Shown piece after piece: positions 36,001 through 38,935 of a stretch of 64,000 bases of DNA. The stretch is from the NCBI RefSeq assembly GCF_058153355.1, contig NZ_CM177019.1; one strand, 5' to 3'. Each line of letters starts with the position of its first letter. Position 1 is the first letter of the stretch. The position numbers were made by a program.

Positions 36001-38935
36001 TAATCCCCGTTATACCGAAAGTGGTGCAGTAGACTGTGACGTTTTTTTTGACGACAGGGCCCCGGCAGTCCCCTACACAGCCACCGCTGATGATGTCGCT
36101 CCGACGGGTCAGCAAATCTGGCAGGAACTGCAAAGCGGCAAATGGGGTGAGATAGCCCCATTCACTGTGACACCAGAAATGCTGGAAGCGGCCAGAGAGG
36201 CCAGACGTCAGGGAATTGAAGCATGGCGCACAGAACAGGAGGCGAAGCCGTTCACGTTTGAATGGAACGGTCGCACGTGGAACGCTGGCCCCAACTCACT
36301 GGGCCGCCTTTATCCGGTGGTAATGGCTGCGAAATCCGACATTGTACGGGACGTGATGACGTGGGGTGATGCCGATAATCAGCAGGTGAAACTGTCGATG
36401 CCGGAACTGGAAGAACTGGCGGCAGCAATGGTGCAGGCGCAGGTCGATCGCAACGATGAGATTTATCGCCGTCAGCGTGAAATGAAAGAGGAGCTGAGCG
36501 GTCTGGATGATTTGGCTTCAATTCGGGCGTTTGACGTTGAGTAATGAATAAGCCGCAACTGGCGGAATCACAGAAGACTGCTTTGCTTACCGAAGCGGAG
36601 TCTGTCATCCGGCCGCCGGGGCGTGCTGTCAGGCTGAACAGGGAAACGGATGAATCCGGGGAGGCCCGGGGGCGGGCCTCTGTTTTTCCGGAGTCAGTCC
36701 GGTCTGTGGTTTATGCGATGTGATTATGAATGGTGCAGTTGTGAGCCGTTTTCAGACAATCGCAGGGCCAGTACCTCGTCAGTCAGCTGACGGTAAATCT
36801 GCTGTTCAGTCTCACGCATCACCTGTGCACCGGCTTCCCTCTCCGCATCCGCATCACCGCTCAGACCTGATGCTTTCAGCCGGTCAGCCACCCTCTGAGG
36901 GTACTCATTCTCCAGCATCTCATATTTCTGCTCTTCTGCCTGCGCCCAGCGGTCAGCTTCCGTACGCTTCAGTACAGCATGCCATGGTCCCCAGAGGGAG
37001 AACCAGTCCGTAAATTCATTCTCTTCACGGCTTCTGACCATGGCTTCGGCAGTGCGGAGGTCATTTGCTGTCACTCCCGACACGCCATAGAAACGCATTT
37101 CCTTCACGGCAGTGGAGAGCTGAAGTTTCTCTGCGAGCATGGTCTGGAAGGCCAGGTAGACTTCTATCTCATCCACAAAATGGAGAGTTCTGACTTTATC
37201 CCGGGCAATGTCCTCCAGAATTTCGAGGCGGAACATTTCCCTGCCCAGGGAGAGCAGAGCGCCGGTATCATTATCGAAAAGGCCTTCTGATGCCTGATGG
37301 ACCAGGAGGGTTTTCCGGAGATTGTTCCATGTGAGCGCGACACGGTCCTCACAGCTCTCAGTGGCATCAGCAGCAACAGTGAAAGACTGCTGTCGAAGCT
37401 CCGCAGAGGCACTGAGTTTTTCCAGCCATGCAGCGACCTGTTCACGGAATCCGGAGGTATTGCGTGCAGAGACGGTATCGGAAAGGCGGTCAAGGAACGC
37501 GGAAAAGGTGTTGGCGTGCTCTTCATGTTCAAAAGCATGCCATATCTGTGATACATCAGATTGTTTGTTTTCCGGGAACCATGCTGTCACGGCATCAGCC
37601 AGGGGGCGATGGAGTGTATTCTGTTGTCCGTCACTCATGGAGAAGTAAATCCGTGGGCCGTGGTAGTCCGGCGAAGAGGTTAATCTTTGCAGGGCTTGCA
37701 GAGTGCGAGTCGACAATGGATTGTTATAAATATTAACATCTGCATAAATGTGCAGATTCATGATACTGTCTGGCAATGTGTTCAGCTGATTGTTAGGGAT
37801 ATATAGTGATTGCAGACGTTGTGGAAGTTCGGGCAGTCTGTGTAGTTGGTTTTCCCCAACGTTTAAAAGCCTCAGATTTTGAGGAAGGGGCGGTAGCTCT
37901 TGTAATCTGTTATCAAAAGCACTTAGTTCCTGTAGTTCACATGGTAATTCTGGTAAGGCAGTAAGCTGGTTGTTGCCAACAGAAAGTTTTTGTAGAGCCG
38001 GGGGAAGATCAGGTAGCGTCTCCAGGCTATTGAGAAGGGCTGAGAGTGACTGCAAGGAAGATGGAAGAGAAGGCAAACATGTTAAAACTCTGTTAAGTGA
38101 AACATCAAGAGCGACCAAGTGAGGCGGAAGAGCCGGGAGCCTGCTCAGTCTGTTATCGCTGGCTTTAAGTACAGTTAAGGACGGAGGGAGTTCTGGCAGA
38201 GAGCGTAGCTCATTGCTAGAGATGTTAAGTTCTTGTATGTGCGGGGGCAGGTATGGGAGAGAGCGTAATCTGAGTAAACTTAAATTGAGGGCTGGCTCTT
38301 GAAAAGCCAGACATATTTTCAGTAATCGAACTGCCTGTGTTCGGTCTTCTGTTGCAGCACCTTCCTTGGCCCAGTTATCCCAGATGCGGTGATAATCCGT
38401 GATATTTTGCTCTTCTACGGATAAATGGGATATACATCCTAAACCACAAAAGGAGCGGAAAAAAGAAGGATTGTGGGCAGGTTTCATTTATTATTGATCC
38501 TCATTGTTTATATATTAATATATTCGTGCAAATGGAGTGAGGATTCTTTAAAAAAACGCGCCTGTAAATAGTTAAGAACAGGAAGAACTGTTGGGGATGT
38601 GGCTGGCCGAAAATGAAGGGGTGAAGTTCTGGCTCAATGTGCTGACTGAACTGAAAAAACGCGGTTGGTCGCCCTACCTTTTCATCAAGCCAGTAGTCTG
38701 CCCACCACTGCATCATTTCTCTGCGCTTATCGAGATACTGAGCATGATTGTAAATTCAACTAACCCAGTGCGTTGACAAAAAATTAGCGCAAGAGGACAA
38801 AAAATCACCTTGCGCTAATGCTCTGTTACAGGTCACTAATCACATCTAACTCATTGATTAATAGTGACTCTAAATGTAGTGTTTTATCGCGTTTTGTAGT
38901 CTATTATTTAATCTGTAACAACGATAATACAATGA

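Follow-up and report, generated by a model that had tools for sequence, protein, structure and literature searches.

In phage lambda, int transcripts that start at pI stop at tI, and pL transcripts that have been antiterminated by N pass tI and complete a longer stem, at which RNase III cuts and destabilises the int mRNA. In phage 434, effector genes (NleC/NleH) lie together with a fragment of an IS256-family element (IS1414) between the tail-fibre genes and sib-attP, and the exchangeable effector loci of EHEC are a further case of type III secretion system (T3SS)-effector cargo in the lambdoid b region. The int-xis-attP-sib region of phage HK022 has been deposited in GenBank (X51962). On the host side, yfaT has been listed as a gene that integrating prophages disrupt (Bobay et al. 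2013, PMC3603311) and as one candidate case of 'regulated gene integrity' (Mageeney et al. 2020, PMC7192596), and chromosomal ipaH genes are surrounded by prophage material (PMC9046306).

We analysed a stretch of 64,000 nucleotides (the window) in which ipaH and yfaS are neighbours. The original prediction, made from the sequence alone, was that this junction had been rearranged by mobile-element activity. A mobile-element junction it is, but the cause that we assign to it is the site-specific integration of a prophage rather than an insertion sequence. We read 38776-38983 as attR of a lambda/HK022-type prophage integrated in the 3' end of yfaT, and give this reading a probability of about 0.93; it is carried by the homology to phage DNA, the geometry of the site, the core, the remaining end of yfaT and the fold of the hairpin. 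The site may still be competent for recombination today. The junction is an ordinary and documented kind of phage integration scar at a known att site. This is already known biology, and nothing here is unexpected for phage or Shigella specialists; the value lies in the annotation, in which the repeats at the ipaH/yfaS junction can now be named (sib/tI, P1-H1-P2 and core) and the apparent loss of yfaA and yfaT is explained as displacement by a prophage. The features are collected in Table 1.

Table 1. Annotated and predicted features of the junction between ipaH and yfaS, in window coordinates
Feature	Position	Strand	Evidence
ipaHa-class T3SS effector E3 ubiquitin ligase gene (587 aa, 1764 bp)	36724..38487	-	Pfam NEL (E=7.6e-77) and LRR_TTSS
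MxiE-box-like sequence GGCGCGTTTTTTTAAAG upstream of ipaH	38546..38562	-	3 mismatches to GTATCGTTTTTTTANAG
IS256-family transposase fragment, internal (~30 codons, ~98 bp)	38567-38665	+	Pfam PF00872, NCBIfam NF033543, BLAST, PGAP
Distal end of lambdoid b region	38676..38775		Homologous to DNA left of sib in 434, Gally and vB_EcoP-611R6
sib/tI element by homology; 11-bp perfect arms 38783-38793 and 38809-38819, U6 at 38778-38783	38776..38826	-	GenBank features, alignment, fold
Predicted Int arm-type site P1 (CAGGTCACTAAT), holds left arm of second repeat	38829..38840	+	Aligns with lambda 'int 1' TGTTACAGGTCACTAATACC
Predicted IHF site H1 AATCAATGAGTTA, matches consensus WATCAANNNNTTR	38847..38859	-	Pattern scan; between P1 and P2 as in lambda
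Predicted Int arm-type site P2 (ATAGTGACT region), holds right arm of second repeat	38861..38870	-	Aligns with lambda 'int 2' GATTCATAGTGACTGCATAT
Predicted Xis-binding region X1/X2, direct repeat ATGTAGTGTTTT / TTGTAGTCTATT	38874..38905	+	Homology to lambda ATGTTGTGTTTT...ATGTAGTCTGTT
attR core: phage C site GTCCTTCTTC (38960-38969), overlap TGACATG (38970-38976), host B' GAAGGAC (38977-38983)	38960..38983	+	Three-way comparison
yfaT 3' remnant, last 30 codons	38966..39055	+	Pfam DUF1175 (E=3.6e-8), profile positions 199-226 of 226
yfaS, alpha-2-macroglobulin family, 1534 aa, intact	38989..43593	+	Pfam MG2, A2M_BRD and A2M; start per K-12 annotation

The crossover point can be located from the host side. 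Aligned with Escherichia coli K-12, the segment 38488-38990 gives no end-to-end native match: K-12 homology begins exactly at 38970, from which point the window is identical to K-12 onward, and there is no match to the left of it. Three versions of the site can be compared: attB, which reads ...caacttaTGACATGGAAGgacaccc in K-12; attL, which reads ...caacttaTGACATGGAAGttgcatg in the enteroinvasive E. coli (EIEC) genome CFSAN029787 and is followed there by the P' arm and int; and attR, which reads ...ccttcttcTGACATGGAAGgacaccc in the window. All three share the core TGACATGGAAG (38970-38980), a sequence with no second copy in the window, and the right boundary of the ipaH island is thereby placed to the base, at 38970-38980. 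A search with a degenerate att pattern recovered one attL only, on an IMG/VR contig, as a second and independent instance of the same junction with the TGACATGGAAG core. Within the window there is no P' arm, and the attL end lies outside it; int-xis and the P' arm are present at the opposite end in the syntenic CFSAN029787, and the source genome's own end is outside the window.

Joining the two halves gives the circular form of attP, reconstructed as ccttcttcTGACATGGAAGttgcatg. Its core, CTTCTTC-TGACATG-GAAGTTG, is in register with that of lambda (CAGCTTT-TTTATAC-TAAGTTG) and that of HK022 (ATCCTTT-AGGTGAA-TAAGTTG), and CTT stands at the same positions in all four core half-sites, both in the alignment and on direct reading, so that the CTT-N-(7 bp)-N-AAG register of lambda is kept. 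The overlap itself differs from those of both phages, as does the chromosomal target, which is yfaT here and the gal-bio intergenic site in lambda. An exact search of IMG/VR with the reconstructed core returned nothing, and BLAST of the reconstructed attP against a phage collection returned only cores of the HK022 and lambda types (best match 83%); neither of these two sources holds a free-phage record with this attP core.

The comparison with other genomes accounts for the host genes that had appeared to be missing. The original prediction held that yfaT and yfaA, which precede yfaS in K-12, are absent. They are indeed absent from the window, except that the last 30 codons of yfaT are retained (PGAP annotates the equivalent piece in syntenic EIEC as a DUF1175 fragment missing its N-terminus), but in syntenic EIEC yfaA and the remainder of yfaT are displaced beyond the int end of the prophage and not deleted. 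The order in CFSAN029787 is gyrA, yfaA, yfaT' (561 bp), int, xis, early genes, myovirus-like tail genes, ipaHa, IS fragment, yfaT 3' fragment, yfaS, yfaQ and yfaP. Over the full 503 bp of the junction (38488-38990), six EIEC genomes match at 95.8% identity, and it is from such syntenic genomes, only 95.8% identical across the junction, that the completeness of the prophage is judged. Integration at this site is common: of 5,426 complete E. coli genomes, 176 have an attL at yfaT, O111:H- strain 11128 among them. The same host gene is thus disrupted here as in the yfaT prophages already published for E. coli (PMC3603311, PMC7192596), among which the cassette of ipaHa and IS fragment is found only in EIEC/Shigella-type members (six genomes, with full-length matches).

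Most of the phage side of attR is occupied by the two inverted repeats. The first, predicted as a perfect repeat of 10 bp, is present (TTAGCGCAAG-N15-CTTGCGCTAA, at 38784-38793 and 38809-38818), but its true length is 11 bp, with arms ATTAGCGCAAG and CTTGCGCTAAT. By homology it is the phage sib/tI element. The feature annotated in HK022 as 'sib transcription processing site' (ACAAAAAATTAGCGCAAGAAGACAAAAATCACCTTGCGCTAATGCTCTGT) corresponds to window 38776-38826, the only differences being a single substitution and an extra A that both fall in the loop, and the feature annotated as 'terminator' in phage 434 also maps onto the repeat. In a five-way alignment of the window with lambda, 434, HK022 and Gally, for which the mean column identity is 73%, a block of 53 columns that contains the 11-bp repeat is invariant, and the hairpin stem is the same in all five phages or prophages. 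The minus-strand RNA, which is int-sense, folds at -27.2 kcal/mol (z=-3.4; none of 200 shuffled sequences folds as well) into a 12-bp stem followed by U6, plus an extended lower stem. The hairpin lies just distal to P1, with 10 nt between the end of the sib stem and P1. It was not called by a simple terminator scan, which allows loops of 3-8 nt (the hairpin loop is 15 nt), and an Rfam scan of 38300-39200 at E<=1 returned no family; sib has no Rfam entry.

As in lambda, the minus-strand hairpin with its U-run would terminate int transcripts initiated at pI. When transcription passes the hairpin, the extended lower stem could form; read-through would thus extend the stem into a substrate for RNase III and lead to destruction of the int mRNA, which amounts to retroregulation, with RNase III processing as a presumed step. 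In the integrated state, the whole prophage would lie between sib and int, and sib would act only once the prophage has excised, or on the DNA of an infecting phage.

The second inverted repeat, GTCACTA...TAGTGAC, is also present, at 38832-38838 and 38862-38868, slightly beyond the range originally given. A repeat of this length carries little information of its own: the window contains 200 7-bp inverted repeats where about 123 are expected, and GTCACTA/TAGTGAC alone is not significant. It acquires a meaning because it is homologous to the annotated Int-binding sites of lambda, and by this homology it is the oppositely oriented pair of arm-type sites P1 and P2 flanking the IHF site H1. P1, H1 and P2 are conserved in the five-way alignment, and P1 is 141 bp away from the overlap in lambda and HK022 as it is in the window. 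For 38874-38905, which we take to be the Xis-binding region, the names X1 and X2 are adopted from lambda attP, and the sites are predicted. A pattern scan gave no consensus match for the IHF site H2 beside the core. By our own reading, the aligned H2 segment of HK022 is also one mismatch from the consensus, and because HK022 departs from it too, H2 seems a weak feature for the HK022 subgroup.

The P arm resembles that of lambda in its identical hairpin stem, in the order of P1, H1, P2 and Xis region and in the spacing of P1 and overlap; it differs by two changes in the hairpin loop, and the window shows the attR half only. With the int-xis-attP-sib region of HK022, the reconstructed attP is 80% identical over 322 bp. 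BLAST of 38488-38990 against phage genomes identified 135 records that match 38663-38968. All come from the neighbourhood of attP in lambdoid or P22-like phages, with HK022 (annotated 'attP site' and sib) and 434 included, and their matches start at query position 176-189.

To the left of this phage DNA, between the tail-fibre genes and sib, the b region carries ipaH as cargo. Phage homology ends on the left at about 36520, at the end of a DUF4376 tail-fibre-assembly gene, and returns at about 38666-38676; the interval is filled by a cassette of approximately 2.1 kb (about 36545-38665) that comprises ipaHa, its MxiE-box promoter and the IS256 fragment. PGAP names the gene ipaHa in syntenic EIEC, and its size agrees with ipaHa/class 4 (PMC3299695, PMC9046306). 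The three mismatches of its MxiE-box-like sequence fall within the range described for chromosomal ipaH genes, in which MxiE boxes differ from the consensus at up to three positions (PMC3299695). The arrangement is like that of phage 434, in which effector genes and an IS256-family fragment occupy the same interval, and differs from it in that the effector is IpaH under an MxiE box and the IS fragment comes from another part of the transposase.

The right edge of the cassette is the IS256-family transposase core that the original prediction had placed between ipaH and yfaS, and its identity is confirmed by Pfam, NCBIfam and BLAST. The translation of 38573-38680, EQEELLGMWLAENEGVKFWLNVLTELKKRG, matches two models, PF00872 (Pfam Transposase_mut) at profile positions 195-223 of 379 with E=7e-6 and NF033543 (NCBIfam IS256 transposase) at positions 155-184 of 338 with E=3.6e-6, and 38567-38664 has about 89% DNA identity to IS256-family copies on enterobacterial plasmids. 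PGAP records the orthologous EIEC stretch as a transposase that lacks the N-terminus as well as the C-terminus. Around the fragment, which is truncated on both sides, we found neither IS termini with terminal inverted repeats nor a target-site duplication. It is a relic and not an insertion sequence.

The EIEC strains FDAARGOS_943 and VL40 carry the same cassette, from ipaH and the IS fragment through sib to P1/P2, at the lambda att site (ybhB-bioA); there it is joined to the canonical lambda core GCTTTTTTATACTAA, and similarity to the window stops near 38914. Because these other EIEC have the cassette at a different att site, that of lambda, the IS256 relic belongs to the cargo module of the phage and predates both the integration events and the junction. 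The fragment did not create the break between yfaT and yfaS. It may instead be a trace of the entry of ipaH into the phage: an IS could have mediated the acquisition, with the fragment as the relic of the cassette having been acquired. The ipaHa gene, the MxiE promoter and the IS256 relic thus move as one cassette in lambdoid b regions with at least two att specificities, and this mobility fits a phage-borne spread of chromosomal ipaH genes.

These observations bear on the other ways in which the junction could be explained. An IS256-family insertion might have removed yfaA-yfaT and joined ipaH to yfaS, in which case the inverted repeats would be transposon ends or scars. A genuine IS256-family fragment does lie between ipaH and yfaS, and the window has further IS and intron insertions, but the fragment covers only an inner part of the transposase (profile positions 195-223 of 379), lacks termini and is separated from the host junction by some 300 bp of phage sequence in which sib, P arm and core are intact. 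Host homology, moreover, breaks exactly at the core that is common to attL and attB, yfaA and yfaT' are present beyond int in the syntenic genomes and the same fragment accompanies ipaH at another chromosomal site, all of which makes this explanation highly improbable. The arms of the first repeat, only 15 nt apart, form a hairpin and are not IS ends; as IS ends both repeats are rejected, and by homology they are phage sib and P1/P2. Even less credence, next to none, is due to the proposal that the repeats are chance features of AT-rich intergenic DNA. The 7-bp repeat taken alone does occur at chance frequency, whereas perfect 11-bp repeats are rare in simulations (for perfect repeats of at least 10 bp with spacers of 3-30 nt, Markov simulations gave a mean of 2.1 matches, against 24 overlapping matches at 10 distinct loci in the window), and both repeats are conserved base for base in many lambdoid phages, in which they are annotated as functional sites.

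A further proposal accepts the phage origin of the hairpin and questions its present use. The hairpin might now serve mainly as an ordinary terminator or insulator that keeps leftward transcription from the host or attR out of the MxiE-controlled promoter of ipaH, and not as a retroregulator of int. Its position is suitable, as the hairpin and U6 are on the ipaH strand (-), about 290 nt upstream of the ipaH start codon; sib and the cassette have been inherited together at two att sites, and the prophage is defective, so a role in the phage cycle may be moot. Against this, a promoter scan to the right of the hairpin found no significant leftward promoter (counts were at the level of shuffled sequences), yfaS is transcribed in the opposite direction and the element does not vary among phages without ipaH. 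Because of this invariance, the conservation of sib is explained by phage function, and we regard an insulator role as unlikely, although less so than an origin of the junction in IS256 transposition.

Returning to integration at yfaT by a lambda/HK022-type prophage, the recombinase at the opposite end in CFSAN029787 is an Int of 357 aa, the same length as HK022 Int, from which it differs by 17 substitutions (95% identity; the identity to lambda Int is 75%). Read from alignments, it has the HK022-type residues D99, P282, K283, K287 and R319, which reportedly act as the HK022-type determinants of core specificity (Dorgai, Yagil and Weisberg 1995). All five are kept in this HK022-like protein, yet the overlap is another one, TGACATG. 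It is conceivable, although we consider it doubtful, that this combination redirects integration to the region of translational coupling between yfaT and yfaS, and that the yfaA-T-S-Q-P (alpha-2-macroglobulin) operon could alternate between split and intact states as the prophage integrates and excises. Such switching by a prophage is possible because the att core overlaps the Shine-Dalgarno sequence of yfaS, GGAAGGA (38976-38982); the yfaS start codon is 9 bp downstream of the crossover. If true, this would unite a natural retargeting of att, through a change of overlap, with 'regulated gene integrity'.

The window's copy of the prophage is defective: its tail lytic-transglycosylase gene is split by an IS66-family element with three open reading frames (24104-26467), and the match of CFSAN029787 to the window stops at 24028. 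Although attR looks intact in its sequence, the prophage is defective, and sib and attR may therefore be fossils without function. The window starts within the early region of the prophage, and an exact-protein look-up leftward from the window start returned many unrelated mosaic prophages at other att sites.

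The ipaHa cassette is shared beyond the yfaT site. In two enteroinvasive Escherichia coli (EIEC) genomes, FDAARGOS_943 and VL40, the classical lambda att site between ybhB and bioA, with the lambda core, holds an identical cassette of ipaHa, the IS256 fragment, sib and the integrase arm sites P1 and P2, indicating that prophages of two different att specificities have a single effector cassette in common. In EIEC CFSAN029787, the prophage that integrates at yfaT encodes an integrase that shares 95% identity with HK022 Int and retains HK022-type residues at positions 99, 282, 283, 287 and 319; despite this likeness, the att overlaps are wholly different (TGACATG for the yfaT-integrating prophage, AGGTGAA for HK022).

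In VL40, moreover, yfaT bears an attL just ~53 kb away from an attR of the lambda type that adjoins ybhB. This short distance suggests a large chromosomal rearrangement via recombination between two related prophages.

Coordinates of features in the window and in related EIEC loci
Feature	Location	Strand	Remarks
tRNA-Asn(GTT) and tRNA-Thr(TGT) genes	window 8691-8846	+	prophage late-regulatory region
IS66-family element	window 24104-26467	+	HTH_Tnp_1, TnpB_IS66 and DDE_Tnp_IS66 ORFs
MxiE-box-like sequence GGCGCGTTTTTTTAAAG	window 38546-38562	-	upstream of ipaH; 3 mismatches to consensus
yfaS	window 38989-43593	+	alpha-2-macroglobulin family; 1534 codons
atoC	window 50140-51354	-	receiver domain truncated at N-terminus
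Group II intron reverse transcriptase/maturase	window 51894-53636	+	580 aa; RVT_N, RVT_1, GIIM, HNH
int of yfaT-integrating prophage	CFSAN029787 locus (L008) 21363-22436
ipaHa cassette	FDAARGOS_943 (L009) and VL40 (L010) loci 4237-6583
VL40 attL (yfaT) and lambda-type attR (ybhB)	NZ_CM177011.1 1609487-1609657 and 1662444-1663503

Within the cassette, only ~5 bp separate the MxiE-box-like sequence from the IS256 fragment, which places the promoter of ipaH directly against the IS relic. The att core overlaps the Shine–Dalgarno sequence of yfaS, which the prophage has severed from yfaA-yfaT and the upstream portion of the gene cluster. Whereas yfaS is a pseudogene in K-12, here it is an intact ORF.

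The prophage is defective, given that the IS66-family element splits its tail lytic-transglycosylase gene into halves at 23400-24032 and 26579-27898. Where the window has two tRNA genes, a related EIEC prophage has four (Ile, Arg, Thr and Val) in the equivalent place. Elsewhere, at 50140-53636, the reverse transcriptase/maturase gene adjoins atoC, which appears to be interrupted by the group II intron.
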